From Patescibacteria group bacterium (GTDB taxonomy: Bacteria; Patescibacteriota; Microgenomatia; Levybacterales; UBA12049): a stretch of DNA of 64,000 nt. Every line of letters begins with the position of its first letter. Within the stretch, counting starts at the first letter, position 1. The stretch lies in NCBI GenBank assembly GCA_026004395.1, contig BPJB01000001.1, positions 161,370 through 225,369 on the forward strand. The letters run 5' to 3'. This document shows positions 25,091 through 61,070 of this stretch, one piece after another. The translations under genes and the position numbers were made by a program. The notes below the pieces were generated by a model. That model searched no databases and was not told where the DNA came from. It saw nothing but the letters and a program-made list of their open reading frames with translations.

Positions 25091-25099
25091 TTTACAACT

Positions 25100-26352: not shown

Positions 26353-26355
26353 AAA

Positions 26356-35290: not shown

Positions 35291-37966
35291 ATGCTAGGTA
35301 ATTTATTCACCCAACGAAAACCAGTGAAACCTTCCATCGCAAGTGATGAGCAAGCAGGAATTGCTCAGTCAAGCGTCTCCGAACAGCAAATATCTTCTTC
35401 AGGCACTACAGCTGCAGTTGGTTCGCGTATGGATCCTCTCATGCGCCAAAATCTTTCTGCTTTATCTCATCTTGATGCTCGAACAACACAGGTGCTTCAT
35501 CATGCACAGGATGAAACCAAACGAATTCGTCAGGCACAAATACGACCGGAACAACTTCTTCTTGGACTCCTCTATGATGAAGAAATATTTAAACTTCTTG
35601 AACAGTTTGAAGTGGATGTTGCCAAGCTTTCGCAAGAAATTCAATCAAAAGAACAGATTGGTACTTATCTAGGTCAACCCACACTCAGTAATGAGAGTAT
35701 TCAAATTTTTGAGCAAGCGTATCGTGAAACAAAGAAAAGAGGAGAAAGTTTCGTTTCTCCTGAGGATCTACTTATGGTTATCTGCGATAGTAACTATGAG
35801 GCTAGCCTTGTTCTTAAAGAAAAAGGTATCAAAAGAGAACAGATAGAAGAAAGGGTGGCAAAATCTTCAATATTTATTAAAGGCAGGAAATCGATTCTGC
35901 AGCAGTACGGAATTGATCTAACAGAGGAAGCACGGGAAGGGAAATTGGATCCTATTGCAGGCAGAGATAAAGAAATAGATAGACTTATACATATTTTACT
36001 TAGACGAACGAAAAATAATCCCATTATTATTGGCGAAGCAGGCGTGGGTAAGACAGCTTTGGTTGAAGGATTGGCTCAGAAGATAGTCTCTGGAAACGCT
36101 CCGAAAGAACTTCAAAATAAACGTATATTTCAGTTAGATCTTGCATCGCTTATTGCGGGAGCAAGTCATCGGGGAGAGTTTGAAGAGAGATTGAAGGGAG
36201 TTATTAATGAGACAATTGCTGCAGAAGGACAGATAATTCTTTTTATTGATGAAATTCATACCCTCATTGGTACTGGAGATACTGAAGGTGCACTTGATGC
36301 ATCCAATATAATTAAGCCACATTTGGCTAGAGGTCACATACAAGTTATTGGTACTACTACTACCTCTGAATACCGTAAACACTTTGAGAAGGATAAAGCA
36401 TTTGAAAGAAGATTCCAACCTGTTCTTTGCGAGGAACCAGATGAGTCTACAGCAGTTCAGATGTTGAAAGTGCTGCAACCAAAATATGAGAAATTTCACA
36501 CAGTTGTCTTCCCAGAAGATACACTCATTGCAGCAGTTAAGCTTTCTAAAAAATATATAGGTGATCGCTACTTGCCGGACAAAGCAGTTGATCTTCTTGA
36601 TGAAGCAGCAGCTCATGTCAAGCTTGAAATTGAGGGTGGCAAAAGATCAGGAAATACAGTTGAGAAAAAAGATATAGAACAAGTTGTGAGTAACTGGACA
36701 GGGATTCCTGTTACTCGATTGACTGAAGATGAAAGTCAAAAACTTCTCAATCTTGAGAAAAAGATTCATGAGCGACTTATAGATCAAGAAGAAGCAGTAA
36801 TTGCTGTGGCTGAGGCTGTTCGTCGAGGGAGGATAGGTCTTTCTGCGGCAAATCGTCCTATTGCTTCATTTATTTTTCTTGGTCCAACAGGAGTTGGCAA
36901 GACGGAATTGGCAAAGACATTAGCTGAGATTCTTTTTGGTCGAGACGATGCAATGGTCAGGCTAGACATGAGTGAATATATGGAAAAACATGAGGTAGCA
37001 AAACTTATCGGTGCTCCGCCTGGTTATGTGGGTTATGAAGAAGGAGGGCAGCTCACAGAGGCTGTACGGCAAAAGCCTTACTCAATTGTTCTCTTAGATG
37101 AGGTAGAGAAAGCCCATCCAGATGTTTTTAATATTCTTCTTCAGCTTTTGGAAGATGGAAGACTTACAGATAATAAAGGCAATACAATTTCATTTAAAAA
37201 TACTATTGTCATTTGCACTTCCAATATTGGCAGTAGTCTCATTCAACAGCAACTAAGTGAGAAAGAAGATTCAATGCAACAATCTCAAGAGGAGTTTAAT
37301 AAACAGTTTGAAGAATTAGCAAGTATGGTAAGTAATGAACTTCATAAATTCTTCCGTCCTGAACTTTTGAATAGATTTGATGATATCGTTATATTTAAAC
37401 CATTGCGTAAATCAGATATGAACGCAATTGCCAAGCTTGGAATAGCAAAAACAGCTAAGCTCCTTGAAGATCAAGGATATCACTTACAAACCACAGAGAA
37501 AGCTATTGCCGAGCTTGCTAAGGAAGGTTATGACCCAGTTTATGGGGCTCGTCCATTGAGACGTCTAATCCAAACAGCCATAGAGAACCAAATAGCACTT
37601 CTTATCATTGGCAGAACGTTTGTCCCAGGCGATACGATCATTGTTGATTTTGATGAGACACAGGGAGTATTTAGATTTAGTAAAGGGAGCGGTGAGAGAT
37701 TAGAGAACAGAGATAATCTGTCAGAGTCTTCTGAAAGTCTAAAGGAAAATGCTCAAGTTGAAGATACTTTTTCTGCCGAAACTTCAATCAATCAACCGGA
37801 TGCAGTGAGTCTTAATAATCAATCGGAAGACTCATCATCATCAATCTTAGCACACGATCCCCTCTCTGATATTAATGGATCATTATTAAGAAATAATCAG
37901 ACAGATATTCAGGGGCAGCCTCCATTATCTCAAGGAAGTGGAGATAATCTTACCACTACAAATTAG
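35291..37966 (+). CDS. Hsp100/Clp-family AAA+ ATPase with two intact nucleotide-binding domains and two Clp_N repeats, ClpA/ClpC-like, no long M-domain, no recognisable ClpP-binding (I/L)G(F/L) loop, S/Q-rich N- and C-terminal tails
   Basis: D1 has …IIIGEAGVGKTALVEGLA… (Walker A) and …ILFIDEIHTL… (Walker B). D2 has …FIFLGPTGVGKTELAK… and …SIVLLDEVEKAH…. Only about 35 aa lie between D1 and D2. The IG[FL]-loop position reads …NIGSSLIQQQ…. The C-terminal 120 aa are low complexity. Confidence 0.8.
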   Translation: MLGNLFTQRKPVKPSIASDEQAGIAQSSVSEQQISSSGTTAAVGSRMDPLMRQNLSALSHLDARTTQVLHHAQDETKRIRQAQIRPEQLLLGLLYDEEIFKLLEQFEVDVAKLSQEIQSKEQIGTYLGQPTLSNESIQIFEQAYRETKKRGESFVSPEDLLMVICDSNYEASLVLKEKGIKREQIEERVAKSSIFIKGRKSILQQYGIDLTEEAREGKLDPIAGRDKEIDRLIHILLRRTKNNPIIIGEAGVGKTALVEGLAQKIVSGNAPKELQNKRIFQLDLASLIAGASHRGEFEERLKGVINETIAAEGQIILFIDEIHTLIGTGDTEGALDASNIIKPHLARGHIQVIGTTTTSEYRKHFEKDKAFERRFQPVLCEEPDESTAVQMLKVLQPKYEKFHTVVFPEDTLIAAVKLSKKYIGDRYLPDKAVDLLDEAAAHVKLEIEGGKRSGNTVEKKDIEQVVSNWTGIPVTRLTEDESQKLLNLEKKIHERLIDQEEAVIAVAEAVRRGRIGLSAANRPIASFIFLGPTGVGKTELAKTLAEILFGRDDAMVRLDMSEYMEKHEVAKLIGAPPGYVGYEEGGQLTEAVRQKPYSIVLLDEVEKAHPDVFNILLQLLEDGRLTDNKGNTISFKNTIVICTSNIGSSLIQQQLSEKEDSMQQSQEEFNKQFEELASMVSNELHKFFRPELLNRFDDIVIFKPLRKSDMNAIAKLGIAKTAKLLEDQGYHLQTTEKAIAELAKEGYDPVYGARPLRRLIQTAIENQIALLIIGRTFVPGDTIIVDFDETQGVFRFSKGSGERLENRDNLSESSESLKENAQVEDTFSAETSINQPDAVSLNNQSEDSSSSILAHDPLSDINGSLLRNNQTDIQGQPPLSQGSGDNLTTTN

Positions 37967-38137: not shown

Positions 38138-38467
38138 ATGTTTTCGTACCTCAGATTTCCATATTATTTTGTTCGATTTTGGTTCATTGAAGCTCCATCC
38201 GGTATTTTGGATTTTTTTCTTTCTCTCAATCATGCATTTTTTCATTTTTTCTCTCTTCCATTATTTTTGCGTACATTTTTTCAACCTTTGAAAAATGAAT
38301 ACCGCACGGGTTTAGTAGGATTTTCTATAGGAATGGGTATTGCGGTTAAAACGGTGTTAATTTTGGTTGATATTTTACTTTTTATTATTCTTCTTGTTTT
38401 TGAAGCCGCAGTTTTAGTTGCATTTGTTATATTTCCTTTTTTAACAATAGCATTACTTTTATGGTAG
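38138..38467 (+). CDS. Small multi-pass membrane protein (3-4 TM)
   Basis: A strongly hydrophobic 109-aa ORF whose stop overlaps the start of the downstream Hsp100 paralog by 7 nt (ATGGTAG). Confidence 0.4.
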   Translation: MFSYLRFPYYFVRFWFIEAPSGILDFFLSLNHAFFHFFSLPLFLRTFFQPLKNEYRTGLVGFSIGMGIAVKTVLILVDILLFIILLVFEAAVLVAFVIFPFLTIALLLW

Positions 38468-40878
38468 CAGCGCAGGACGATTTTATAAAACTCTATGCAT
38501 TTTATAGATCTGCATTTATGCGTGCAGTTCGTCTCTTGATTTTTTTCATTCTTGGCACATATATTCTTTCTGCTTTTTCTACTAATACTTCTCCCAAATT
38601 TGCACTCTTTTTAATGAACATTTTTATCATGTTAGAGGTTTTTTATCATTTTAAGATATCCCGTTTACGACCATCTATGACAGTTCAACAAGCGGATGAT
38701 GATCATGCTCTTAAGGCATGTACTCTTGCTGTTCTCTATGCACTTTATACTGCACAATCTGCGGAGGAGTTAATCAGGCGACTTTTACGCTCAAAACAAG
38801 CAATCTTTTTACTAGAACGTATTCCTGTTAGTCCTGAAGAACTTCCTCATACTACAATTGAAGCTATTACACTCCTTAGATCTACTTTAAAGATTGCCAA
38901 GCTAGCAGGAGGAATCTATATTACTCCTGCTGATGTGATAGCAACATATCTTTTGTTGACTGAGGATCAATCAAAACTGCTCTTTTCCAAAAAAATCAAA
39001 CAAACTGAGCTGATAGAAATTTTGAGATGGGCAAGGTGGAGCTACCCCGAGGAGGAAAAGCACCATCCGCTGGAAATTCAAATTAGTGGTTCAGGAATTG
39101 GTGAAGGGCTTGTAGCAGGATGGACAATCGAGACAAAGAAGTACACTCGTGATTTTGGTATGAACGCAGTTAATGAAAATAACTCCATTATTGGAAGAGA
39201 GGAAGAGTTTCGTGCATTACAGGAAGCTCTCGTAAAAAATCAAAATAACAATGTTCTTCTTATAGGCGAGCAAGGTGCTGGAAAAGAAGGATTGGTACAG
39301 AAACTAGCTATTGATAGTTTTAATGGAAGAACAATTGCAGGTTTGAGGAATAAACGTATTCTTGAACTTCTTATTGGTCCATTAATTGCTGGTGTCTCAT
39401 CTTTAGGAGATCTAGAAGCGCGTCTTCAGGCAATTATTGAAGAAGTATCTCATGCTGGGAATATCATTCTTTATATACCTGAAGTGCAGGATATTCTCGG
39501 ATCGACATCTTTCTCTATGGATCTTTCTGGAGCTCTTTATCCTTATCTTAAAACTGGCAAACTTCCTGTCATTGCGTCTATCACTCCAGGTAATTTTAAG
39601 ACCTATCTTGAGGAAAAACCTCTTGCACGGCTTTTTACACCTATTTATCTTAATGAACCAAAAGAGGAACAAGCAAAACGTATATTGATGGAAAGATCAT
39701 TAGCAATTGAGCGAAAAACCAAAGTCATCATTACTTATTCAGCAATTATTGCTGCTGTAAAATTTGGTGATCGTTATGTACAGGAGATTAGACTGCCGGG
39801 TAGCGCAATTCGACTTCTTGAAGATGTTGTGCAAAGTGCAATGCAGCAGACAATGCCTGTATATTCTCTTACGCACCAAAAAATTCTTACAGAAGATTTC
39901 ATTGTTCAGAAGATTGAAGAGAGGATTGGTGTGTCTCTTTCTGAACCCACATCAGATGAAAGAAATCTTTTATTAAACTTAGAGAATAAACTTCATGAGC
40001 GGGTCATAGGTCAAGACGAGGCAATAAGAGTCATTGCGCAAGCTATTCGTAGACTTCGTTCTGGGATGATATCACGACCAAGACCCATATCATTTCTTTT
40101 CTTAGGACCAACTGGAGTGGGAAAAACAGAGACAGCAAAAGCGCTTGCCAGTATTTATTTTGGTGGTGAAAATTCTATGATTAGACTGGATATGAGTGAG
40201 TATTCCGATGAGATAGGAGAACGCAGGCTGCTTGGAGCTCCTCCAGGACAAGGAACAGAGCGTGGTGAGTTAACAGAACAAGTTCGAGATCATCCTTATT
40301 CTTTGATATTGTTGGATGAGTTTGAAAAAGCTCATCCTCGAATTTTGGATCTTTTTCTTCAAGTTTTGGATGATGGTCGTCTCACAGATAACAAAGGTAG
40401 AACAGTATCTTTTATAAATTCGCTGATTATTGCAACATCTAACGCAGGTTCTGAGTTTATTCGCGAAGAGGTCTTGAAAGGAACTCCATTAGATCAACAG
40501 TTTGAAGCAAAGCTTATTGAGTATTTACAAAATCATCATATTTTCAAACCTGAACTTCTCAATAGATTTGACGATATCATCACTTTTAGACCGCTTACCA
40601 AAGAGCAGATCAAAAAAATTTGTGCACTTATGCTTCAGCAGGTAGTGTCTGATTTGTTAGAAAAAGATATAGCTATAGTATGGGAAGATAAAGTTTTAGA
40701 TAAAATATCTTCAGAAGCATTTGATCCTCAGTTTGGAGCTCGTCCTATAAGAAGATATATTCAAAACAATATAGAAGATCTTCTTGCTCAAAAAATACTT
40801 GCAGGAGATGTGCAACGAGGGAATACTGTGCATATCACACTCAGAGACGATGATTCATTTGCAGTAACTGTTACCTAG
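38461..40878 (+). CDS. Membrane-anchored Hsp100/Clp-like AAA+ protein with degenerate D1 (pseudo-ATPase) and intact D2
   Basis: Two N-terminal TM helices (…LLIFFILGTYILSAF…, …FALFLMNIFIMLEVFY…). The D1 Walker A reads GEQGAGKEG (GKE instead of GKT/S) and the D1 Walker B reads ILYIPE (Pro in place of Asp). D2 is canonical: …LFLGPTGVGKTETAK…, …SLILLDEFEKAH…, a sensor-2 GAR in …GARPIRR…. No IGF loop. Confidence 0.65.
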   Translation: MVAAQDDFIKLYAFYRSAFMRAVRLLIFFILGTYILSAFSTNTSPKFALFLMNIFIMLEVFYHFKISRLRPSMTVQQADDDHALKACTLAVLYALYTAQSAEELIRRLLRSKQAIFLLERIPVSPEELPHTTIEAITLLRSTLKIAKLAGGIYITPADVIATYLLLTEDQSKLLFSKKIKQTELIEILRWARWSYPEEEKHHPLEIQISGSGIGEGLVAGWTIETKKYTRDFGMNAVNENNSIIGREEEFRALQEALVKNQNNNVLLIGEQGAGKEGLVQKLAIDSFNGRTIAGLRNKRILELLIGPLIAGVSSLGDLEARLQAIIEEVSHAGNIILYIPEVQDILGSTSFSMDLSGALYPYLKTGKLPVIASITPGNFKTYLEEKPLARLFTPIYLNEPKEEQAKRILMERSLAIERKTKVIITYSAIIAAVKFGDRYVQEIRLPGSAIRLLEDVVQSAMQQTMPVYSLTHQKILTEDFIVQKIEERIGVSLSEPTSDERNLLLNLENKLHERVIGQDEAIRVIAQAIRRLRSGMISRPRPISFLFLGPTGVGKTETAKALASIYFGGENSMIRLDMSEYSDEIGERRLLGAPPGQGTERGELTEQVRDHPYSLILLDEFEKAHPRILDLFLQVLDDGRLTDNKGRTVSFINSLIIATSNAGSEFIREEVLKGTPLDQQFEAKLIEYLQNHHIFKPELLNRFDDIITFRPLTKEQIKKICALMLQQVVSDLLEKDIAIVWEDKVLDKISSEAFDPQFGARPIRRYIQNNIEDLLAQKILAGDVQRGNTVHITLRDDDSFAVTVT

Positions 40879-43891: not shown

Positions 43892-45343
43892 ATGACACAG
43901 AAAAGCATAAACACACCATATTTTCCTCCAGTTGTTGCCGTTTTAGGTCATGTTGATCACGGGAAAACTACTCTTCTTGATGCTATAAGAAAAACATCTA
44001 TTGCAGAGCGTGAATTAGGTGGAATTACTCAGAGAATTGGAGCCTCATCAGTTGAAATTATAAGTGATGGTACAAAAAGGAAAATAACATTTATAGATAC
44101 TCCTGGTCATGAGGCTTTTGCAAAAATGAGAAGCCGTGGTGCACAAGTTGCGGATATTGGTCTTCTTGTTGTATCAGCGGCCGATGGGGTTATGCCACAA
44201 ACTCGAGAGAGTATCGCTGTTCTTAAAGATGCAGGAATACCCTATATTGTAGTCCTCACAAAATCTGATCTTCCCACAGCAAATCCTCAGAAAGTAAAAC
44301 AACAACTTCTAGGAGAAAATGTTCTTCTTGAAGAGTTTGGTGGTGATATTCCTGCAATCAGTGTATCAGCAAAGACCAATTATAATATTAAAGAACTGCT
44401 TGATCTTGTTCTTTTGGTTTATGAGCTTCACTATCCAAATTTGCAAGATGCCGCATCAGCGCCCCTTACTGCAGTGGTTATTGAGTCTCGCCTTGATACA
44501 AAAGCAGGACCAAAAGCAACAGTGGTTATAAAGAAGGGAACAATAAAACTTCGAGATGAGCTTTATACAGAACATGGACTATTTCGAGTAAGAAGTATCC
44601 TCACAGATAGAGGAGAATTACTTCAGGAAGCGTCTGTTGGAGATGCGGTCGAGATACTTGGATTTACGAGTGTTCCCAGCGTGGGAAGTCTTATCACCAA
44701 AACTCCTCAGTCTCTTGTTGAGGTATCTCCCAAAGTTCCTCTTAAAAAAGAAGCTACCCTACCAATGCAAAAGAGAGAAGGAGAACTCCAGATTATTCTG
44801 GTTGCTGATACTCAGGGATCACTCGAAGCAATTACAAATGCATTACCAGAAAAAGTCAGATTAGTTTACCAAAAAACAGGTGAAATTACAGAAGCAGATG
44901 TCCTTATGGCAAAATCAACAGGAGCGTTAATTATCGGTTTTAATACCCGCATTCGTCATGATGTTGCGAAACTAGCACGTACAGAAAAGGTTCTCATGAA
45001 AAATTATTCAATTATTTATGAGTTGCTGGATGAGATTTCAGAAGTACTCGCTGGTAAAGAACTTGAGATGATGGAACAGATTTTTGGGACCGCACAAATA
45101 CTTGCCAAGTTTCCCTATGAAAAGACATATGCTTTAGGAATTCGTGTATTAGACGGTAGGGTAGCCAAAGGTGATAAGGCAAGGTTGGTAAGAGGAGAAG
45201 AAATTATTGGAGAAACTCAAATCACTTCTTTAAGGGTAGGAAAGAATCCAGTATCTAAAGTAGAGAAGGGTCATGAAGCAGGGATCCTTATCTCACCATT
45301 ACTTGACTTCCAGGTTGGTGATGTGGTAATATGCCATGAATAA
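43892..45343 (+). CDS. infB: Translation initiation factor IF-2 (short form: G-domain through C-terminus)
   Basis: …VVAVLGHVDHGKTTLLDAIRKT… is G1, …FIDTPGHEAF… is G3, and …LTKSD… is the NKxD-like motif. The gene follows nusA. Confidence 0.88.
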   Translation: MTQKSINTPYFPPVVAVLGHVDHGKTTLLDAIRKTSIAERELGGITQRIGASSVEIISDGTKRKITFIDTPGHEAFAKMRSRGAQVADIGLLVVSAADGVMPQTRESIAVLKDAGIPYIVVLTKSDLPTANPQKVKQQLLGENVLLEEFGGDIPAISVSAKTNYNIKELLDLVLLVYELHYPNLQDAASAPLTAVVIESRLDTKAGPKATVVIKKGTIKLRDELYTEHGLFRVRSILTDRGELLQEASVGDAVEILGFTSVPSVGSLITKTPQSLVEVSPKVPLKKEATLPMQKREGELQIILVADTQGSLEAITNALPEKVRLVYQKTGEITEADVLMAKSTGALIIGFNTRIRHDVAKLARTEKVLMKNYSIIYELLDEISEVLAGKELEMMEQIFGTAQILAKFPYEKTYALGIRVLDGRVAKGDKARLVRGEEIIGETQITSLRVGKNPVSKVEKGHEAGILISPLLDFQVGDVVICHE

Positions 45344-45355
45344 TATAGGATACTT

Positions 45356-46309
45356 ATGGATGCTCAATCAATTCAACGAATCAGAGATATTATTTCTCGC
45401 AGCCAATCGATATCAATTATGGTAGGAGAAAATCCGACTGTAGATCAGATGGCTGCAGCCTTATCTTTATATCTCACTCTTTCTACAGGTAAAAAAGTCT
45501 CCGTTTTTTCTCTCTCAACTCCACTGGTTGAACACTCATCACTAGTTGGTATTGATAAAGTAGGGACATCTCCTGAAGGAACAGGAGGAGATTTGGTTGT
45601 TTCTTTTCCCTACAAAGAGGGAGAGATTGAAAAGGTATCCTACACTATCGAGAATGGTTATCTTAATATTATTGTGAAAGGTGGAGAAGGGGGATTAACG
45701 TTTGATGAGCACGATGTACTTTTCAAAAGGGGAACAGGCAAAGTTGATCTTTTAATTACTGTTGGAGTAGAGAGTATGCGATTGGTGAAGAATCTATTCA
45801 GTGAGGATGCTCTTAAAGAAGCAACTGTGATTAATATTGATAACACAAATGAAAATTCAGGATATGGAGATGTTGTTTTGGTTTCCAATAAATTTTCATC
45901 GCTTTCTGAACAGGTAGCAGATCTTCTTTTGAATCTTGGATTAGATATAGATATTGATACTGCGCAAAATCTTTTATTAGGTATTACAGAGGCTACAAAT
46001 AATTTCCAGTCGCCTCAAACGAGTTATCTTGCCTTTGAAATTGCTGCCATTCTTCTTAAAAGAGGAGCTGTACGGCCTCAAATAGAGATGACAAAAAGAC
46101 AAGACCTAAAAAAAGAAGAAAGATTAGATATCGTGCGACAAAGTATAGGCAAGGTTCAAGAATCGGCACAAAAGCAGTCTCCATTGCCGCGCAGTGAACA
46201 ACAGACTAGACAAGATCAGAAAATGCGATCAGATAGACAATCATCTGAGCAAAAGCCACCTTCTGATTGGCTGACTCCTAAAGTTTACAAAGGTTCAACG
46301 AATATTTAA
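45356..46309 (+). CDS. DHH-family (NrnA-like) phosphoesterase homolog with degenerate catalytic motifs and no DHHA1 domain
   Basis: Architecture parallels NrnA/YtqI: …SISIMVGENPTVDQMAAALSLYLTL… (the DxD motif is lost), …KVDLLITVGVES… (motif II Asp lost), …VINIDNTNEN… (DHH replaced by DNT), …LLLGITEATNNF… (motif IV region). The C-terminus is a Q/R/S-rich low-complexity tail rather than a GGGH-containing DHHA1. Confidence 0.5.
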   Translation: MDAQSIQRIRDIISRSQSISIMVGENPTVDQMAAALSLYLTLSTGKKVSVFSLSTPLVEHSSLVGIDKVGTSPEGTGGDLVVSFPYKEGEIEKVSYTIENGYLNIIVKGGEGGLTFDEHDVLFKRGTGKVDLLITVGVESMRLVKNLFSEDALKEATVINIDNTNENSGYGDVVLVSNKFSSLSEQVADLLLNLGLDIDIDTAQNLLLGITEATNNFQSPQTSYLAFEIAAILLKRGAVRPQIEMTKRQDLKKEERLDIVRQSIGKVQESAQKQSPLPRSEQQTRQDQKMRSDRQSSEQKPPSDWLTPKVYKGSTNI

Positions 46310-46355: not shown

Positions 46356-46625
46356 ATGCCACTTTCATCTACACAAAAACAAGATATTATCAAACAGTAT
46401 CAAACAGCTGAGGGAGATACAGGAAGTCCTGAGGTGCAGATAGCATTGCTTACGAAGAGAATAGAGAGACTTGCAGAACACCTCAAAGATCACGTTCATG
46501 ATGTTCACAGCCGTCGTGGTCTTCTCTCTATGATTGCTAAACGAAGACGACTTATTAACTTTCTTGCAAAGGTTGATAAGAATCGTGCATCAGCTATTTT
46601 AAAAAAGATTGGATTAGAAAAATAA
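46356..46625 (+). CDS. rpsO: 30S ribosomal protein S15
   Basis: …GDTGSPEVQIALLTKRIERLAEHLKDHVHDVHSRRGLLSMIAKRRRLINFL… is canonical S15. Confidence 0.92.
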   Translation: MPLSSTQKQDIIKQYQTAEGDTGSPEVQIALLTKRIERLAEHLKDHVHDVHSRRGLLSMIAKRRRLINFLAKVDKNRASAILKKIGLEK

Positions 46626-48911
46626 ATGGAAAAAACCTCTGTTTCTTTAGATTTTGCAGGAAAAACACTCACATTAGAGACTGGTCATCTAGCCCCGCAA
46701 GCAACCACATCAATACTAGCTCGTCTCGGTGATACAATGGTGCTTGTGACTGTGGTCTTGGGAGCAGAACGTGAGGATCTTGGATATTTTCCGCTCTCTG
46801 TTGAGTATGTAGAGAGACTTTATGCTGGAGGTAGAATTAAAGGTAGCCGTTGGGTTAAACGGGAAGGACGACCTTCAGATGAGTCTATATTAATTGGTAG
46901 ACTTATTGATCGTTCAATTAGACCCTTATTTCCCAAAGATCTAAAGCGCGAAATTCAAGTAGTTGTAACTGTACTTTCAGTTGATGGAGAAAACGAGCCA
47001 GATATTCTCGCAATTAATGCTGTATCTGCAGCTTTGGCTATCTCTAATATTCCATGGAACGGCCCCATAGGAGCGATTCGTATGGGCTACATCCAAGATC
47101 CAGAGAACGGAAAGAAAGAATTTCTCCTCAATCCGACAACAACAGAAGCAGAGTTCTCAGATTTAGATCTCGTGGTGTCTCAATCAAATGATCTTACTGT
47201 AATGATTGAGGCAGGCGCAAATCAAGTTCGGGAAGATGTTTTGCTAGAAGCTATCGAACGTGCACAGAATGAGACTCGAAAAGTAATTGCTTTTATCAAT
47301 GATTTGGCAAAAAAGGTAGGAAAACCAAAACTTGAAGTCCCAGTTGATAAAGAGCTCAAAGAACTTTCAGCTATTATCGAAAAATCGTATAAGGAAGAAA
47401 TTAAAAATTTGGTAACGAAACTTGCAAACAAAGAAACTGGAGGAACAGAAACAGAAGATTTAGTTGCAAAAATTTATGAACACGAAAGAATGGTAGATCC
47501 TAATCGTGAACTTGATACTACTCTTATTGCTAAGGCTTTGGAAGCGGTTTTATTTAAACAAATTAGACACGATGTTGTTTCCCAGCAAAAACGTCCTGAT
47601 GGAAGAAAAATTGATGAAATTCGACCCATCAACATAGCTGTTGGTATTCTACCTCGAACACATGGATCAGCACTTTTTCAAAGAGGGCTTACACAAGTTT
47701 TGACTGTCGTGACTCTTGGTTCTCCTCGTTTGGAACAATTTATTGAATCTGCAGAAGGAGAAGAGACTAAACGTTATATTCATCATTATTCCATGCCACC
47801 CTATTCAGTTGGAGAAGTGGGTAGAATGGGTACTCCCTCCAGACGAGAAATTGGACACGGTGCATTAGCAGAGCGTGCTTTGGAGGCTGTAATTCCTTCT
47901 CAAGATAAGTTTCCCTATACAATCCGTGTTGTATCTGAAGTTCTTTCATCTAATGGTTCGACTTCTATGGCGGCAACTTGTGGATCGACCCTTGCTTTAA
48001 TGGATGCGGGAGTGCCTATTGTAAAACCTGTTGCAGGTATCTCAATTGGTCGTATGTCTGAGGAGGATAAATCTGTTCTTTTGACGGATATTATTGGCCT
48101 TGAGGATTTTTCTGGAGATATGGATTTTAAAGTAGCAGGAACAGATGAGGGAATAACTGCAATTCAGCTCGATGTAAAGATACCGGGGTTAATTTTATCC
48201 GAGATCAAAGAGATCTTGGAGAGAGCGCGGATAGCACGACTGGCAATACTAGAGAAAATGCTTGCTACTATTCCCACCTCTCGTGCTGAGGTGTCAGTAT
48301 ACGCACCAAAGATTGAACAACTGCAGATTCCTATAGATAAGATTGGCGAACTTATCGGTCCGGGAGGACGAGTAATCAGAAATATTATTGCTCAAACAGG
48401 AACTACAGTTGATGTTGAAGATGATGGAACAGTCACTATCTCCGGTACAGAAGAAGAAGCAGTAAAAAGAGCTGTAGAGTGGATAAGAGGGTTGACACGA
48501 GAAGTTGTTCCAGGTGAGATTTTTGAAGGACCGGTTAAAAGAATTCTGCCTTTTGGAGCATTTGTTGAAATTTTGCCGGGAAAAGAAGGAATGGTTCATG
48601 TTTCAAAGATGGGTAAAGGGTATATCCAAAGTCCGGAAGAGGTACTTTCAGTTGGTCAAATTGTCAAAGTAAAGGTTAGCGAAATTGACGAGCAAGGGAG
48701 GATTAATCTTACCATGCAACTTGAAGAGCGACCTCGTGATTTTGAAGTAGGAAAAGCGGAAACTCGTGGACAAAAAAGTGAAAGAGGTGGATTTTCTCCT
48801 CGTTCTGAAAGACAGCGAAGTAAGCATCCACTTGCACAACAGTTTGAGCGGGAAAGGATGCTGCACGAGCTCTCTGGAAGACAAAAAACTCGCCGCAAAA
48901 CGCATTATTAA
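46626..48911 (+). CDS. pnp: Polyribonucleotide nucleotidyltransferase (PNPase)
   Basis: Two RNase PH domains, a KH domain (…IGELIGPGGRVIRNI…) and an S1 domain (…GEIFEGPVKRILPFGAFVEILPGKEGMVHVS…), plus a basic C-terminal tail. The start is adjacent to the rpsO stop. Confidence 0.92.
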   Translation: MEKTSVSLDFAGKTLTLETGHLAPQATTSILARLGDTMVLVTVVLGAEREDLGYFPLSVEYVERLYAGGRIKGSRWVKREGRPSDESILIGRLIDRSIRPLFPKDLKREIQVVVTVLSVDGENEPDILAINAVSAALAISNIPWNGPIGAIRMGYIQDPENGKKEFLLNPTTTEAEFSDLDLVVSQSNDLTVMIEAGANQVREDVLLEAIERAQNETRKVIAFINDLAKKVGKPKLEVPVDKELKELSAIIEKSYKEEIKNLVTKLANKETGGTETEDLVAKIYEHERMVDPNRELDTTLIAKALEAVLFKQIRHDVVSQQKRPDGRKIDEIRPINIAVGILPRTHGSALFQRGLTQVLTVVTLGSPRLEQFIESAEGEETKRYIHHYSMPPYSVGEVGRMGTPSRREIGHGALAERALEAVIPSQDKFPYTIRVVSEVLSSNGSTSMAATCGSTLALMDAGVPIVKPVAGISIGRMSEEDKSVLLTDIIGLEDFSGDMDFKVAGTDEGITAIQLDVKIPGLILSEIKEILERARIARLAILEKMLATIPTSRAEVSVYAPKIEQLQIPIDKIGELIGPGGRVIRNIIAQTGTTVDVEDDGTVTISGTEEEAVKRAVEWIRGLTREVVPGEIFEGPVKRILPFGAFVEILPGKEGMVHVSKMGKGYIQSPEEVLSVGQIVKVKVSEIDEQGRINLTMQLEERPRDFEVGKAETRGQKSERGGFSPRSERQRSKHPLAQQFERERMLHELSGRQKTRRKTHY

Positions 48912-48923
48912 ATTAATTTTATG

Positions 48924-48975
48924 CATACGATCTCTTTTGCTTTTGTGATATTTTTAGTATTATAAAGATCGTATG
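48924..48975 (+). promoter_or_regulatory. 10-bp perfect inverted repeat (CATACGATCT … AGATCGTATG, 32-nt loop) whose 3' arm contains the start codon of the Lon-like gene
   Basis: Left arm 48924-48933, right arm 48966-48975. The ATG of the downstream ORF is at 48973-48975, and the repeat sits in the pnp to Lon-like intergenic region. Confidence 0.4.
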
Positions 48976-50088
48976 GATCCTGCCTCTTTATCAACAGCAT
49001 CTTCACAGAAACCTATTCAAGAAAAAGCAGAGTCAATGGATCAGATTCGCAGATTAGGTGAGCGTGTTGAAAAGGCTAATCTCCCTGCTTTACTTAAAGA
49101 AAATCTTCTAGAACGTGTCTCACGTTTGGCTCTGATACGAGCAAGTTCGGGATTTATGAGTGCAAATTATATTCTCGAATATGAAAATACAGCTAACTAC
49201 ATTAATTGGGTGGTTGGATTGCCGTGGAATAATCAAAGTGAAGATATCCTAGATATGATAAAAGCAAAGCAGATTATGGATAAACATCATTATGGACTTG
49301 AAGAAATAAAAAATAGAATTTTGGATTATCTTGCTACTATAATTCTTAACTTAAAGCAAGGAAGAAAAGATATTATCCAGCGTGCGCCTATTCTTTGTCT
49401 CGTAGGCTTAGCAGGCACCGGTAAGACGACTCTCGCAGCATCAATAGCAGAGGCATTAAATAAAAAATTTGAACGTATTCCTTTTGGGGGGATGGCAGAC
49501 GCACGAGCTCTTCGTGGTCAATCCAAAGCTTTTCCAGATGCAGAGCCGGGGTATATTATCAAAAAACTTTTTCATGCACAAACAAAGAATCCAGTAATAC
49601 TTCTTGATGAGCTTGATAGAGTTACAGAATCGGCTCGAGCAGATATTATGGGAGTACTTGTAGAACTTCTTGATCCTGAGCAAAATTTCTCTTTTGTTGA
49701 TCACTATATTGACTATCCTTTTGATCTCTCGAATGTTTTTTTTATTGCAACCGCAAACAATACCAGTACTATTTCTACTGCTGTTCTTGATCGTTTGGAG
49801 ATTATTCAAATGCCTTCATATACAGATGAGGAAAAATTAATCATTGCTAAAAATTACCTTTTTGACAAAATAAGAACAACAGCAGGATTAACAGATCAAC
49901 AACTCAGCATTGATGAATCTGTTTGGCCTCAGGTGATAAGACCTTTGGGATTTGATTCTGGGATTCGTTCTCTTGAGAGAACAATTGAAAGTATATGCAG
50001 AAAAGTAGCGCGTCAAATTGTTGAAGGTAGAGTACAGAATGTTCGAATTACACAAGATAATCTCAAAGAGTATCTTGTTACGTGGTAG
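48973..50088 (+). CDS. Lon-derived AAA+ ATPase module without the N-terminal (LAN) domain and without the S16 protease domain
   Basis: …YINWVVGLPWNNQSED…KQIMDKHHYGLEEIKNRILDYLAT…ILCLVGLAGTGKTTLAASIAEALNKKFERIPFGGMADARALRGQSKAFPDAEPGYIIKKL…NPVILLDELDRV… is collinear with Lon residues about 300-580 (Walker A, Walker B, sensor/arginine finger). The ORF ends at …LKEYLVTW*, right where the Lon protease domain would begin, and the next gene (rnj) starts 86 nt later. Confidence 0.7.
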   Translation: MDPASLSTASSQKPIQEKAESMDQIRRLGERVEKANLPALLKENLLERVSRLALIRASSGFMSANYILEYENTANYINWVVGLPWNNQSEDILDMIKAKQIMDKHHYGLEEIKNRILDYLATIILNLKQGRKDIIQRAPILCLVGLAGTGKTTLAASIAEALNKKFERIPFGGMADARALRGQSKAFPDAEPGYIIKKLFHAQTKNPVILLDELDRVTESARADIMGVLVELLDPEQNFSFVDHYIDYPFDLSNVFFIATANNTSTISTAVLDRLEIIQMPSYTDEEKLIIAKNYLFDKIRTTAGLTDQQLSIDESVWPQVIRPLGFDSGIRSLERTIESICRKVARQIVEGRVQNVRITQDNLKEYLVTW

Positions 50089-50174
50089 TCTAATCTATGA
50101 TGCAAAGAAATAGGTTTTCTAAAATACAGTTCTATCCAATGATTTCGCTTATATTATCTACACTTTAAGCATTT

Positions 50175-51863
50175 ATGGACCAGCAAGAAAGATCACAGCC
50201 TCAAATGAAAAAGCCCTCTTTATCTCTTATTCCTCTTGGAGGAATGGAAGATATTACTAAGAATATGTATCTTTACGAATATCAAAATGAAATTCTCATA
50301 GTTGATTGCGGGATTGGTTTTGCTGATGCCTCAATGTTGGGTATAGATCTTCTTCTTCCGGATATCACCTACCTTTTACAGACAAAAAAGAAAATTGTCG
50401 GTCTTCTTTTAACTCACGGCCATGAAGATCACATTGGAGCTCTTCCTTTTATTCTACCTCAGCTTCCGAAAATTCCTGTTTTTGGAACGCCGTTTACAGC
50501 AGCTTTGGCAAACGAAAAGTTAAAAGAATTTAAACTCCCCGCCAATGTCAATACAGTCACATTTAATAGTCCTCCTCTGATACTAGGTAACTTCAAATGT
50601 TCTTTTCTTCGTGTAACGCATTCGGTTCCGGATACAGCGCATATCTTTATTCAAACACCTGCTGGAAACATGTACCACGGTAGTGATTACAAAATTGATT
50701 TAACGCCTCAGGATAGGCAATATATGGATTTTCAAAGTATAGTTGCTGTAGGTAATACAAAAATTCTTGGTCATCTTATTGATGCTTTAGGATCGGATCG
50801 TGCTGGGCATACCCCCTCAGATGAAAATTTAGGAAAAACGATTGAGGATATCCTGCTTGAATGCAAAGGCAAGGCAATTATTACAACCTATTCCTCTAAT
50901 GTTGCACGAATAAATCAGATAATACAGGCTGCCGAAAAACTCAAAAAAAAAGTATGTTTTATTGGTAGATCGATCATAAAAGTAGTTGAGGTAGCAACCC
51001 GGCTTGGTTATCTGAAATTTCATGAAGGTACAATTATTGAGTTTGAGAATCTTAAGAATTATCCAGTTAATCAAGTAGTTCTTGTAGTTGCGGGAAGTCA
51101 AGGACAGGAAAACTCAGCAATGACTAGAATTGCAGAAGGTGAGCATAAGGAGATTAAAATTTCATCAGGAGATGTTGTTATAATTTCAGCTGATCCTATA
51201 CCAGGAAATGAAGAATCAGTTAACAGTCTCGTTGATAGTATTTCTAAAACAGGCGCTCAAGTTATCACATCAGGGAATGGAAGGGTTCTGCACGTTTCAG
51301 GGCATGGATCTCAACAAGATCATCTTTTAATGATGTCTCTATTAAGAGCTAGATATATTATCCCCATTAGTGGTAACTATCGTCATTTGATTCTATTTAA
51401 AGATCTAGCACAAAAGTTGGGATATCGTGATAGAGATGTTATTATTCTTGAAAATGGTCAGGAGGTAATTTTTTCAGATGGAGGATATTCTTTTGGACGT
51501 CGAATTCCGACAAAAAATGTTTATGTAGATCAGATTTCAGGAGAAGAAGTAGAAGGCTTTGTTTTGCGGGATCGTGAGAAGTTAGCTAAGGATGGAATTA
51601 TTATCTTAATGGTTGAGATAAATGCTGCTGATGGACAGTTGGCAGAGACTCCAGATCTTATCATTCGCGGTATTTCACCTAAAGAGACACAAGTTATTAC
51701 ATCCGGTCTTGTGAAAGAGATAAGTAATCTTCTCGGCAGTCGAAAAGGGAGGGTCAAAAACTGGATACAACTTCGAAAAGATATAGAAGAAGTCACAAAT
51801 AAATTTATTTACAAAAAATTTAGACGTCGTCCTCTCGTGATACCCGTGATAATTGAAGTTTAG
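50175..51863 (+). CDS. rnj: Ribonuclease J (metallo-beta-lactamase / beta-CASP RNase)
   Basis: …LLTHGHEDHIGALPF… (HxHxDH), a beta-CASP region, and a C-terminal domain. Length 562 aa. Confidence 0.85.
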   Translation: MDQQERSQPQMKKPSLSLIPLGGMEDITKNMYLYEYQNEILIVDCGIGFADASMLGIDLLLPDITYLLQTKKKIVGLLLTHGHEDHIGALPFILPQLPKIPVFGTPFTAALANEKLKEFKLPANVNTVTFNSPPLILGNFKCSFLRVTHSVPDTAHIFIQTPAGNMYHGSDYKIDLTPQDRQYMDFQSIVAVGNTKILGHLIDALGSDRAGHTPSDENLGKTIEDILLECKGKAIITTYSSNVARINQIIQAAEKLKKKVCFIGRSIIKVVEVATRLGYLKFHEGTIIEFENLKNYPVNQVVLVVAGSQGQENSAMTRIAEGEHKEIKISSGDVVIISADPIPGNEESVNSLVDSISKTGAQVITSGNGRVLHVSGHGSQQDHLLMMSLLRARYIIPISGNYRHLILFKDLAQKLGYRDRDVIILENGQEVIFSDGGYSFGRRIPTKNVYVDQISGEEVEGFVLRDREKLAKDGIIILMVEINAADGQLAETPDLIIRGISPKETQVITSGLVKEISNLLGSRKGRVKNWIQLRKDIEEVTNKFIYKKFRRRPLVIPVIIEV

Positions 51864-58036: not shown

Positions 58037-58756
58037 TCATATGATACGTGCTTGAACTATCAGCCTCATCCACGTTGTTCCCGGAGGAGTACAGGTGACA
58101 AGAGTAAGATAATTATCATCATAATTTTGAGAAAAGAAAGATGTATCGTTAGGATCTGTGATTGTGATTTTATAAATTCGATATGTATAGTTTACCCCAT
58201 CTATTGTCAATTCGACAAGATCCCCAACTGTTAAGGTATGAAGGTTAGCGAAAATGGTTTTATAATCCTTGGGATTGTATAGCTGTGGAAGTGTTGAGTG
58301 TCCGAAAATAACTGCATTGCCTTTATTGGGTGGTACTGATGTACCTCCGTAATGAACAAGGTGCTGAGAAAGATCATTATCAACAACAGAAACAATTGCT
58401 TTCTGAATAGAGAGTTTGGGGATACTTAAGTAATATTGCGTAACAGATGAGCTAGTTTTTCCTGCATTAAAACTAGGGTACCAATTTCTCGCATTGGTGT
58501 AATCTACTCCAGTTACAGCATCTGTTGTAGATCTGATAAAATTTTTGATTGATGACTCACTAATTACTGTTGTTTTGGGTATAGGTGTTACCACTCCTTG
58601 TTGTGCAAAAACAGGGTGAAGATAGAGCTGAAAAGAGATAAACGGAAATGAAACATAAGCAACTATAACCACCCCTAGACAACATACTAGAAGACTAAGG
58701 ATGCGGATAAATTTTCTGATATTATGTCGTTTTTCTTTTTTATAGAATCTAATCAT
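58037..58756 (-). CDS. Sortase-family transpeptidase (membrane-anchored)
   Basis: N-terminal TM. …NAVIFGHSTLP… carries the catalytic His, …LTLVTCTPPG… the TLxTC Cys motif, and a downstream Arg (…WMRLIV…). Confidence 0.75.
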   Translation of the reverse strand: MIRFYKKEKRHNIRKFIRILSLLVCCLGVVIVAYVSFPFISFQLYLHPVFAQQGVVTPIPKTTVISESSIKNFIRSTTDAVTGVDYTNARNWYPSFNAGKTSSSVTQYYLSIPKLSIQKAIVSVVDNDLSQHLVHYGGTSVPPNKGNAVIFGHSTLPQLYNPKDYKTIFANLHTLTVGDLVELTIDGVNYTYRIYKITITDPNDTSFFSQNYDDNYLTLVTCTPPGTTWMRLIVQARII

Positions 58757-61070
58757 TAGTCTTTACAATAATAGTGATATTTTCTTTGGAACGAGGAAGA
58801 ATTTTGGATATCAATGGAATATTGGGTGACAATGTGATTTGTATATTCTTGATTTGAGGAATTGTCGTCTTAAGATATGCTTGTGCGTCATCAACAGATT
58901 TTCCTGTAAGGTTTTGAGTTATGAGTGAAGTATTCATTTTGGGTAAAAGATTGGCATGCATAATGAGAGTTGCCTGAACAGCGTCTTTTTCTTTTTTAAT
59001 ATCTTCAAGTTTTGCCTCAACTCCTTTGGAAGAGAGTGCAAGATCTTCGGAATATTTTCCCTTCAGAGCAACTTCTGCTAACTGTTGTATATCAGAGGTG
59101 TTATAAACAAGAGTTGTAAAGACAACTGTTCCTTTTAATGTCACTTTTTTAGTTTCTTCTCCAACATCTTTATCAAAAGATTTTTTAGTTAAGGTGATTG
59201 AGGTAAAGGCTGGAATGGCCTCTTGTCCACTGCGCAATTTAGCAGTAACTGCATTTTTTGCTTTCTCTTCAAGCGTTTGAGGAAGATTGGTAACTAAAAA
59301 ATTAATATCTTTTTGGGAGACTACGGTTATCTCTTTTTTTGATCCTCCTTGAAAAGCAGAATCATTTTTAGCAATAACCATTGTTTGAGGCTCGTTAGCG
59401 ACCTGAAACTTAGTTCCTGAAGGGAGATTATATTCTTTACCAATATCTTTTGCAGTGACTCCTACTTTGGCAGTACTTGATTTTATTTGACTTGCATCTC
59501 CTGAAGCAGAAGCAACAGTCACAGCTTCATCTAAAAGAAAAATTAAGTCATTTGAGGAGGTCAGAGTTGTGCCTTTAGGAAGAGAAATGCTTTTACTTAT
59601 ATTACTATTGTAGATTGTTACAGTACCTTTTGCTTTTTCTCCCACCTCTTTTTTGCCGGTTGCATCTGTTGTTAATGATCCTTCTAAAGATACCTCAATT
59701 TCTTTTGCAGAGAGAATTAATTGGGAAAAATCATTGGGAGAGCCGCTGCGTATGGTAATCTCTGCTTTCTCTTCAATTTCTTTCGGCTCTATCTCAAGTA
59801 ATACTTGCGCTTTTAATGAGGAGATATAAACAACCACACCACTAATCAAGAGAAGGAGAATTATTGTTAAGATAATGATCCCTTTGCTTCTTTTAAAGAT
59901 TATCAAAGTGTTTATACTCCATTGCCATAATGATGAAAAGTTAATCCTAGAGAAAATACTTAAAGATAGTAAAGAAAAAAATGATCGCTTTTTCTCTGTT
60001 TTGCTTTTTGTTTCCCACGCCGTTTGAGAAGATAGAGCAGTATTTTGTTGAGAATTATTGATAGTAAATTTGGGAGAATTTCTTTCTTGCATAGATAATT
60101 TTTCATGAGGAGAAGATATCTTGGAAATATCATCATCTATAACAAATCCGAAGTTATCTGCTGTGTAGAGGTTTTTATCTGAAGTATGCTTTTGTTTTGT
60201 AGAAAATGTGGATTCATCTGTTGATTCAATGGACTCTGTTTCATCTTCTCTCTCGTTTTCCAATGTATTATCAGTTGCTCTAGTTTCTTTTGAAAACTCA
60301 GTTTTAGTATCTTCGATTAGTGCCATTCCCATTTGTTCAGCAGCACCAACAACAATTGATTCTTGGTCAAATCCTTTTGGCAGAGTAGAAATTTGTGGAA
60401 CGTGTAAAAATGGGATACTTTTACTCCACTGAAAACTCATGAATTCCTGAAGCAAAGAGTCATTGTCCTCTACACCAAGAAGAATTATCCGTGAAGGGAG
60501 AACATCAACTGTAAAATGATGTAAAAGTATATCTACTGTTTTGGTAATTTCATCTTTGATTTCACTAGTATGCTGTTCAAGTATTCTTCCTGCTCTAAAC
60601 AGTGTGAGTGTGACCTGTTTTTTACCAATTTCTGCAAGAATTCCTGAGAGAGGAGCACCTTCTTCTTTTTGAAGAAGATTGGCAATTGCTTCGCTTATGA
60701 CGATAAAACCGATCGGGGATAGTGATAATGACTCACAAATTTTTTTAAGTTTGGTTAAATACTCTTTTTTTATTTTTTTTCCCTCTACCCAGCTATTTTT
60801 CACGCCAAAGATTGTTTTTTCAGTTTCGATATCCGCTGCTATAGTTTCTTCAGCAGTGCTTATTGCTTTATCAAGTGTTTCTAATAATTCTTCTTCCGAT
60901 AGATCTTCAAGAGTAGTAGATAGAACTTCTTCACCTTTTCCTACTATAGAGATTTTACCTTCTTTGGCTTGAAGGATCACAGCCACAATTTTCTCATCCT
61001 TTAACAGTAAGGTTAAATAATAATCTGAGTTATCTTTTTTTTTGAATAGACTAGGCAAGGGCAGTTTCAT
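58749..61070 (-). CDS. Large bitopic membrane protein: cytoplasmic N-domain (FtsA/PilM-like actin-fold, very tentative), acidic S-rich linker, single TM, ~370-aa extracytoplasmic beta-rich domain
   Basis: A 773-aa protein with a TM at …IILTIILLLLISGVVVYISSL…. The N-terminus …YYLTLLLKDEKIVAVILQAKEGKISIVGKGEEV… resembles the first strand-hairpin of actin-like ATPases. There is no LPXTG at the C-terminus. Confidence 0.35.
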   Translation of the reverse strand: MKLPLPSLFKKKDNSDYYLTLLLKDEKIVAVILQAKEGKISIVGKGEEVLSTTLEDLSEEELLETLDKAISTAEETIAADIETEKTIFGVKNSWVEGKKIKKEYLTKLKKICESLSLSPIGFIVISEAIANLLQKEEGAPLSGILAEIGKKQVTLTLFRAGRILEQHTSEIKDEITKTVDILLHHFTVDVLPSRIILLGVEDNDSLLQEFMSFQWSKSIPFLHVPQISTLPKGFDQESIVVGAAEQMGMALIEDTKTEFSKETRATDNTLENEREDETESIESTDESTFSTKQKHTSDKNLYTADNFGFVIDDDISKISSPHEKLSMQERNSPKFTINNSQQNTALSSQTAWETKSKTEKKRSFFSLLSLSIFSRINFSSLWQWSINTLIIFKRSKGIIILTIILLLLISGVVVYISSLKAQVLLEIEPKEIEEKAEITIRSGSPNDFSQLILSAKEIEVSLEGSLTTDATGKKEVGEKAKGTVTIYNSNISKSISLPKGTTLTSSNDLIFLLDEAVTVASASGDASQIKSSTAKVGVTAKDIGKEYNLPSGTKFQVANEPQTMVIAKNDSAFQGGSKKEITVVSQKDINFLVTNLPQTLEEKAKNAVTAKLRSGQEAIPAFTSITLTKKSFDKDVGEETKKVTLKGTVVFTTLVYNTSDIQQLAEVALKGKYSEDLALSSKGVEAKLEDIKKEKDAVQATLIMHANLLPKMNTSLITQNLTGKSVDDAQAYLKTTIPQIKNIQITLSPNIPLISKILPRSKENITIIVKTND

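Follow-up and report, generated by a model that had tools for sequence, protein, structure and literature searches.

A conserved stand-alone Lon-type AAA+ ATPase without protease domain, encoded behind rpsO-pnp in Patescibacteria

Introduction

The DNA analysed here is a stretch of 64,000 nucleotides (hereafter the window) from a Patescibacteria group bacterium (GTDB lineage Bacteria; Patescibacteriota; Microgenomatia; Levybacterales; UBA12049), corresponding to positions 161,370 to 225,369 of the forward strand of contig BPJB01000001.1 in the GenBank assembly GCA_026004395.1. On its + strand at 48973..50088, behind the genes for ribosomal protein S15 (rpsO) and polynucleotide phosphorylase (pnp, PNPase) and ahead of the gene for RNase J (rnj), lies a gene for a stand-alone Lon-type AAA+ ATPase. 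An initial annotation, made without database searches, had recognized in this open reading frame (ORF) the central part of Lon without LAN and protease domains, and had taken it for either a decaying lon pseudogene or a Lon-derived ATPase repurposed as an adaptor or unfoldase. From the evidence below we hold with high confidence that the gene encodes a functional stand-alone ATPase and not a protease.

The gene product and its fold

The ATPase gene runs from an ATG to a TAG stop at 50086-50088 and encodes 371 amino acids; from stop to stop, its frame allows just 5 additional codons upstream of the ATG. The strings on which the initial annotation had relied (ILCLVGLAGTGKTT, LLDELDRV and the terminal ...LKEYLVTW*) were all found in the ORF. 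Its collinearity with central Lon was likewise seen in an alignment to residues 237-579 of E. coli Lon, the best matches among solved structures being LonA chains. The match to LonA ~237-579 covers the AAA+ core, the lid and, at the N-terminus, a three-helix bundle.

Pfam assigned AAA to residues 141-279 and Lon_lid to residues 304-353; neither Lon_C nor LON_substr_bdg (PF02190) was found in the protein. The NCBIfam model TIGR00763 ("lon") was matched only with profile positions 247-571 of 795 and reached 338.6 bits against a cut-off of 608, while NF008053 gave 262 against 891, such that the protein scores below both equivalog cut-offs. ClpX models of NCBIfam gave a marginal 19 bits, and neither Pfam nor NCBIfam holds a model specific for a short Lon-type ATPase. 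Searching the whole 64-kb window by tblastn with the N domain (residues 1-240) and the P domain (residues 585-784) of E. coli Lon yielded nothing at E<=10. From 42 full-length LonA representatives, hidden Markov models (HMMs) were built for either domain. No ORF in the six frames of the window matched them; at 3 control LonA loci they recovered both domains with E values of 1e-63 to 1e-88. Pfam, the span of TIGR00763, tblastn and the HMMs thus agree that LAN and protease domains are absent, as had been claimed.

An AlphaFold2 model of the ATPase, based on 62 family sequences, had a mean local confidence (pLDDT) of 89 and a predicted template-modelling score (pTM) of 0.81. Only ~14 residues precede the three-helix bundle, whose helices span residues 15-34, 39-59 and 64-82 and are followed by the AAA+ alpha/beta subdomain and the lid. 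The best full-coverage fold match of the model was 6N2I, with a TM score of 0.91 on the target and an rmsd of 2.4 Å.

Along the + strand the gene first encodes the three-helix bundle (residues 15-82, 49015..49218), which from the model helices and the E. coli Lon alignment corresponds to the NTD-3H, the C-terminal portion of HI(CC). It is followed by Walker A (G145-LAGTGK151-T152, 49405..49428), by an acidic, proline-containing pore loop 1 (R181-GQSKAFPDAEPG-193, 49513..49551) in place of RGHRRTY[IV]GSMPG of Lon, and by Walker B (I209-LLDELD-215 with D212 and E213, 49597..49617). The stretch from the sensor-1 residue N262 to the trans-acting arginine finger R274 occupies 49756..49794. The lid, a small alpha-helical subdomain (residues 285-367, 49825..50073) recognized by Pfam Lon_lid and by its invariant columns, includes the sensor-2 residue R332 (49966-49968). 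A C-terminal end that is conserved in the subfamily alignment (N363-LKEYLVTW371, 50059..50085) closes the protein 3 residues past the position of Lon Y578-L579, i.e. in the would-be linker from lid to protease. The stop at the lid/protease junction had thus been read correctly.

A conserved family of short forms

The short architecture is shared by a large family. The best 120 homologue clusters listed (69-99% identity) all comprise 357-451 amino acids with AAA and Lon_lid, none with Lon_C. A profile made from the remoter short forms listed a further 120 clusters of 351-632 amino acids, again none with Lon_C, which brings the short-form clusters in these listings to at least 240. An exhaustive search of 1.84 billion representatives found short forms down to ~44% identity; canonical LonA begins at ~40-45%. 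Within GTDB, for which one genome per species was scanned, 77 species carry a short form. The hosts include Levy-, Shapiro-, Gottesman-, Ames-, Roizman-, Woese- and Daviesbacteria, "Microgenomates", WWE3 and Dojkabacteria/WS6, with Levybacteria-labelled sequences as the nearest relatives of the window ATPase. Neighbour-joining distance trees, which carry no support values, placed all short forms in one clade, apart from LonA and from Lons with tandem AAA modules.

Compared with a 99%-identical homologue the gene differs by 12 synonymous and 2 non-synonymous changes, i.e. a ratio of non-synonymous to synonymous rates (dN/dS) of 0.046. For homologues of 70-78% identity the synonymous sites were saturated (proportion of synonymous differences pS ~0.75, of non-synonymous differences pN 0.15-0.23). 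Conservation among relatives and dN/dS were among the checks that the initial annotation had proposed, and both came out on the side of a maintained gene: the truncated form is kept across relatives and the ratio is low.

These data bear directly on the reading of the ORF as a pseudogene, a frameshift or an assembly artefact of a normal lon gene. Such a reading draws on no more than the end of the frame at the point where a protease domain would be expected to begin. It is contradicted by the recurrence of the same end point in every one of the 240 listed clusters and in the 77 GTDB species, i.e. in hundreds of independent assemblies, as well as by the separation of the clade from LonA, the low dN/dS and the conservation of family-specific motifs. 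A protease domain frameshifted nearby is also excluded as had been argued before, since rnj starts 86 nt further on and no frame of the window holds a remnant of the P domain; the stop codon is TAG and not a recoded UGA. Had relatives carried full-length Lon at this locus, a recent pseudogenisation would have been indicated. The HMMs, applied to the window and to more than 80 related loci, found neither a Lon protease domain nor LAN within ±10 kb at any of them. The shared short form, the separate clade, the low dN/dS and the absence of Lon_C and LAN from the relatives' loci together refute the pseudogene reading, and we leave an artefact practically no chance.

On these sequence comparisons the family is ancient, monophyletic and under purifying selection within the Microgenomates / WWE3 / Dojkabacteria branch of Patescibacteria, and descends from a LonA that permanently lost both the LAN and the serine-lysine protease domain.

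The extra length of the longer members consists of low-complexity tails and not of relics of lost domains. We considered the extensions as degenerate domains, C-terminal in P0160 and P0158 and N-terminal in P0124, P0139, P0143 and P0144, and rejected this: they are of low complexity, rich in Q/P/S/N, and have no HMM or Pfam match. Three Dojkabacteria-type members (P0144, P0301, P0333) carry a low-complexity insertion between the three-helix bundle and Walker A, which amounts to ~130 amino acids in P0144, at the site where the whole family has an insertion of ~7 amino acids relative to E. coli Lon. Source databases name family members "AAA family ATPase" or, misleadingly, "Lon protease".

Among the highest-scoring relatives were also many tandem-AAA Lons, encoded outside the window, in which 2-3 Lon-type AAA+ modules with Walker A motifs ~340 amino acids apart precede one Lon_C (P0121, P0123, P0126, P0128-P0130, P0133-P0138, P0141 and others). 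P0121, labelled Candidatus Dependentiae, has 1113 amino acids with three AAA modules and Lon_C. A literature search on tandem-AAA Lons found no description of them.

Conservation of the motor and rewriting of the client-contacting parts

Residues were surveyed in 81 diverse family members using E. coli Lon numbering, with the roles of the Lon residues in the ATP site, the arginine finger, the relay and the grip taken from PMC7239648. The Walker A lysine K362, the Walker B residues D423 and E424, the sensor-1 asparagine N473 and the arginine finger R484 (acting in trans) are each present in 81/81 members, and the sensor-2 arginine R542 in 79/79. Every residue needed for ATP binding and hydrolysis, including the arginine finger, is thus invariant as judged from the alignment. 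The relay that in Lon connects the nucleotide state to the pore loop, formed by the pre-sensor-1 (PS1) beta-hairpin and the NTD-3H, is largely retained as well. In the hairpin, position Y456 (window Y245) is Tyr or Phe in all 81 members and E458 (window D247) is Asp in 78; in the NTD-3H, Y294 (window Y76) is kept as Tyr in 77 and W297 (window W79) as Trp in 70. Deleting HI(CC), residues 124-304, lowers the ATPase activity of E. coli Lon more than 10-fold (PMC5509003). A need for this part of HI(CC) may be the reason why family members start here rather than at the canonical AAA+ boundary.

The grip of pore loop 1 is rewritten. At the position of Lon Y398 no residue is conserved (F15, S15, Y10, H10, R6, E6 and others), I399 is replaced by Pro in 54/81 members, G400 by Asp or Glu in 69/81 and M402 by Glu in 77/81 (window E191), such that the aromatic-hydrophobic pair Y398-I399 is not kept as in LonA. 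R395 of the tandem-Arg feature is Ser in 65/81. The family consensus of the loop reads x-P-[DE]-[AS]-E-P-G, with F187-P188 in the window protein and a nearly invariant P192-G193, and the net charge of the loop falls from +3 in Lon to 0 or +1.

Also family-specific are pore loop 2, the lid stretch W318..R323-P-L-G-F-D, the flank of Walker A (GLaGtGKTT in the family vs GPPGvGKTS in Lon) and an 8-residue insertion (residues 60-68) in the three-helix bundle, beside the position of the upper-pore residue Met284 of Lon. The C-terminal consensus in the subfamily of the window ATPase is N-[LIV]-K-x-[FY]-[LI]-P-x-[WY]-COOH, where N is found in 121/121, P in 114/121 and W or Y in 109/121 sequences. Tails of other subfamilies differ, ending in ...PDQGPLS in Dojkabacteria and being variable in the type that is linked to groES-groEL (see below). 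A basic patch of E. coli Lon (R306/K308/K310/K311) has a role in DNA binding; it is missing in the family and equally in 3 LonA controls, so that its absence carries no information. Taken together, the alignments indicate that the client-contacting parts were rebuilt and then conserved, with the motor and its internal relay intact.

Gene neighbourhood

The ATPase gene belongs to a co-directional run that encodes ClpB-type ATPases, NusA, IF2, a weakly DHH-like protein, S15, PNPase, the ATPase, RNase J and FtsK; the naming of the neighbours as RpsO, PNPase and RNase J was hence borne out, with FtsK in addition. At the start of the rpsO-pnp-ATPase block lies rpsO (46356..46625, +), whose orthologues at five related loci (L002, L004, L007, L008, L090) carry PF00312. 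A phmmer search using the protein from the window located rpsO in most loci, ~2.2-2.5 kb upstream of the gene for the ATPase. Next comes pnp (46626..48911, +), encoding a PNPase of 761 amino acids (704 to 805 in related genomes) whose orthologues contain two RNase_PH domains, KH and S1. The last ~60 codons of the window pnp encode an Arg/Lys/Ser-rich C-terminal tail of ~50-60 residues after the S1 domain. The gap of 61 nt between pnp and the ATPase gene (48912..48972) contains no terminator-like or good promoter-like site, and in relatives this gap measures 8-80 nt. Behind the ATPase gene a gap of 86 nt (50089..50174), likewise without terminator-like or good promoter-like site, leads to rnj (50175..51863, +), coding for 562 amino acids with the Pfam domains RNase_J_b_CASP, RNase_J_C and Lactamase_B. 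From this arrangement the ATPase gene is probably co-transcribed with rpsO-pnp and, in the window, also with rnj.

The linkage was assessed where 2.5 kb or more of upstream sequence was available, which was so for 66 species. In 43 of them pnp directly precedes the ATPase gene on the same strand, at a distance within 300 nt in 36 species and separated by one small gene in 7. Since no major branch of the family tree lacks this linkage, WWE3 and Dojkabacteria included, the position behind pnp is most simply regarded as ancestral. Adjacency to rnj is tight in Levybacteria-type genomes; elsewhere, including Dojkabacteria, 1-4 genes intervene. Of the RNA-turnover setting described in the initial annotation, the place behind rpsO-pnp is therefore real and conserved, while the contact with rnj is looser.

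Several loci (L009, L010, L013, L019, L057 and others) show the Patescibacteria-type order NusA-IF2-S15-PNPase-ATPase-RNase J under labels such as "uncultured Gammaproteobacteria", "uncultured Pseudomonadales" or "Candidatus Methanoperedens sp."; evidently, either these labels are placeholders or wrong, or the contigs were mis-binned. A WS6 clade of the family adjoins a convergent VirB4-like gene, which says little.

In 10-11 of 14 loci, members of a nested clade with the pore loop RGQSKTSPE[AS]EPG and without the LPxW tail stand head-to-head with groES-groEL, the neighbours being verified as Cpn10 and Cpn60. Because one metagenome-assembled genome carries both types (loci L049 and L071), the groESL-linked and pnp-linked types are paralogues, the groESL-linked copy being the derived one. 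No consistent CIRCE/HrcA operator site was found between groES and the paralogue.

Proposed function and alternatives

The reading we prefer is that of a ring-forming, stand-alone Lon-type ATPase which remodels proteins without degrading them; we give it an even chance. The ATPase would assemble into a Lon-like ring, since the arginine finger is invariant and has to reach across a subunit interface to act. ATP hydrolysis would be coupled to movements of the rebuilt central loop, given that the family keeps the relay to pore loop 1 and conserves the new loop. With the aromatic-hydrophobic grip gone and no protease present, clients would be remodelled, released or held rather than processively threaded into a degradation chamber. 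The acidity of the loop suggests that the clients or their tails may be positively charged. Most likely the ATPase would act on proteins of RNA turnover and translation or in general protein quality control: probable co-transcription with rpsO-pnp is consistent with either role, and the groES-groEL-linked paralogue supports the second. Of the initial proposal of a repurposed Lon-derived ATPase, the identity is thus supported, whereas a classical unfoldase is doubtful, as the pore-loop grip is unconserved.

Some points weigh against this reading. An aromatic residue in pore loop 1 is kept in the window protein (F187) and in ~43% of members, which may leave room for some threading ability. LonA hexamers are held together by the protease ring, and the sole pointer to ring assembly without it is the conserved trans-acting arginine finger. 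The promoter and terminator scan was a crude consensus scan with site counts not above those of shuffled controls. The pnp linkage may reflect inherited membership of an old nusA-infB-rpsO-pnp cluster and not a partnership, and 23/66 species lack it.

One alternative, in fact a sharper version of the preferred reading, is a dedicated RNA-turnover or ribosome-linked remodeller whose partners would specifically be PNPase, RNase J or ribosomal proteins; it could, for instance, clear RNA of basic RNA-binding proteins or regulate PNPase via its basic tail. The short-gap, same-strand adjacency to pnp in 43/66 species, extending to lineages whose proteins are just 45-50% identical, speaks for such a partnership, as do the acidified central loop and the Arg/Lys-rich tail of ~50 residues on the window PNPase. 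However, the nusA-infB-rpsO-pnp block is collinear as a whole, so the linkage may be historical; the 23 unlinked species and the paralogue that is linked to groESL instead do not fit a dedicated partnership, and PNPase varies in length and tail between lineages (704 to 805 amino acids). We therefore consider this version unlikely. Its most specific form is a Lon-derived ring that, co-expressed with S15, PNPase and RNase J, detaches basic RNA-binding or ribosomal proteins, or the PNPase tail, from RNA by pulling with its acidic loop; this is a long shot. If true, such a ring would fill the role of degradosome DEAD-box helicases or of eukaryotic ribosome-biogenesis AAA+ ATPases in helicase-poor, genome-reduced bacteria, and a whole bacterial branch would have given up Lon proteolysis while keeping the motor.

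Alternatively, the protein could be a non-threading ATP-dependent switch or scaffold (clamp-loader-like or MoxR-like), or a holdase or adaptor. This would agree with the fact that the conserved Tyr-Ile grip, the tandem-Arg feature and the substrate-recognition N domain are lost and that pore loop 2 is rewritten. On the other hand, the new pore loop is highly conserved (E191 in 77/81 members, P192-G193 nearly invariant) and the PS1-beta-hairpin relay that positions it is kept; together these indicate that the loop is still a working motor element. This reading seems rather doubtful to us.

The protein could also be the unfoldase half of a split Lon that docks with its aromatic C-terminus on a separate peptidase (a free Lon_C, or a ClpP/HslV-like one) in the manner of ClpX and HslU. 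Its end in the former lid-to-protease linker with the conserved ...[FY]-[LI]-P-x-[WY]-COOH of the subfamily, the intact motor and allosteric relay, and the pore-loop aromatic F187 in the window protein could be so explained. Yet the search of the window locus and the more than 80 related loci, with its positive LonA controls, found no ORF with a P or LAN domain within ±10 kb, although ClpP/HslV were not searched for. Moreover, the C-terminal motif is unconserved across subfamilies, the aromatic-hydrophobic pair for threading is unconserved too, and the terminal extensions of some members are of low complexity and not domain relics. A split Lon is accordingly improbable.

An anti-phage defence ATPase (BrxL, IetA, DolB or TRIP13-like) was rejected: the best PADLOC match was DolB with 32.5 bits, a generic AAA hit, and the genomic context is that of housekeeping genes.

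As a ring that remodels without degrading, the protein would be a candidate for a part in the quality control of proteins or ribonucleoproteins among Patescibacteria, a group with very few characterised proteins.

Other features of the window

About 20 kb upstream of the ATPase gene, at 25064-29422, lies a classical HrcA-controlled heat-shock operon, hrcA-grpE-dnaK-dnaJ, with all four genes identified by Pfam. Located 10 nt upstream of it is a palindrome of CIRCE type, ATAGCACTCCTGTTATTATAGTGCTAA, which deviates from the consensus by 2 mismatches. A 1808-residue ORF at 29810-35236 separates dnaJ from the ClpB-type gene, the first of two tandem genes for double-ring ATPases of ClpB/ClpC type (35291-37966, ClpB-type, and 38461-40878). 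The second protein (805 amino acids) has a strong D2 (AAA_2, ClpB_D2-small), a faint first AAA match and no Clp_N, which suggests that its first AAA module (D1) is degenerate. An orthologue of 803 amino acids is kept upstream of nusA at two related loci (L002, L004).

Within the translation genes, IF2 (43892-45343) comprises just 483 amino acids and starts at the GTPase domain, without the typical long N-terminal region; short IF2 of 483-533 amino acids is also found in relatives. Between infB and rpsO, in the usual place of rbfA/truB, a gene at 45356-46309 encodes a protein of 317 amino acids with a sub-threshold DHH match (E 0.003). Counterparts of 276-442 amino acids without Pfam match occupy the same position in most related Microgenomates and Dojkabacteria loci. 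Further downstream, on the - strand at 58749-61070, a protein with a weak Baseplate_J-like match adjoins alanyl-tRNA synthetase; proteins of this kind (772-850 amino acids) occur in the same neighbourhood at four related loci (L002, L004, L007, L090), an odd place for a domain of phage-baseplate type, as this is a housekeeping region.

Comparison with known systems

By sequence (~38-45% identity over 340 residues) and by fold, the closest known system is LonA (MEROPS S16), with E. coli Lon, B. subtilis LonA and human LONP1; the available names of the closest LonA representatives are Clostridiales or generic and say nothing on a full-length Lon in Patescibacteria. Family and LonA share the three-helix bundle, the AAA+ large subdomain, the Lon lid, Walker A and B, the sensors, the arginine finger and the PS1-beta-hairpin relay. 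Unlike LonA, the family has neither the LAN/N domain nor the long coiled-coil nor the Ser-Lys protease domain, it has rewritten versions of pore loops 1 and 2 and of part of the lid, and it forms a separate clade. Lon motors can evidently persist alone for very long, with catalytic and allosteric residues intact and substrate-contacting loops rewritten.

The published definition of Lon (A, B, C, BA) calls for ATPase and protease domains on one chain, with LonB marked by a membrane anchor inserted in the AAA+ module and LonC by an inactive ATPase (PMC9569914). With no protease domain, no AAA+ insertion in the model and intact ATPase motifs, the window protein matches none of LonB, LonC and LonBA. 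HCLR-clade ATPases are defined by the pre-sensor-1 beta-hairpin together with a sensor-2 arginine that acts in cis (PMC7239648), and the window protein has both (Y245/D247 and R332). LonC, e.g. of Meiothermus taiwanensis, is described in PMC3391209 and PMC13069640 as a Lon-family member that has also given up one of its two activities. It is the mirror image of the present family, as it keeps the protease and its ATPase is dead. Genome-reduced Mycoplasma keep a complete Lon in their minimal degradation machinery, according to PMC7737663. A search of the literature on protease-less Lon, on Lon in the candidate phyla radiation (CPR)/Patescibacteria and on Patescibacteria proteases found no description of the family, most papers in subscription journals lying outside this search.

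The excised AAA+ domain of E. coli Lon in 6N2I shares its fold with the window protein and has almost identical boundaries (E. coli ~235-584). In contrast to this laboratory fragment, the family is a natural, selected full-length product with loop and tail motifs of its own. It thus offers a natural experiment that can replace engineered fragments, on a Lon AAA+ ring without a protease ring and on which parts of the pore loop set the choice of clients.

ClpX and HslU grip their substrates with aromatic pore loops and have docking elements for their peptidase partners. As in these proteins, a single-ring HCLR-clade ATPase, with the ring being our expectation here, would be encoded without fused protease. 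They differ from the family in that its grip is unconserved and that no linked Lon_C partner gene lies within ±10 kb. ClpB/Hsp104, a relative of ClpA/ClpC, belongs to a different subfamily, with two rings and an M domain. By analogy it nevertheless provides, next to the chaperonin-linked paralogue described here, a precedent for a remodeller that works independently of a protease.

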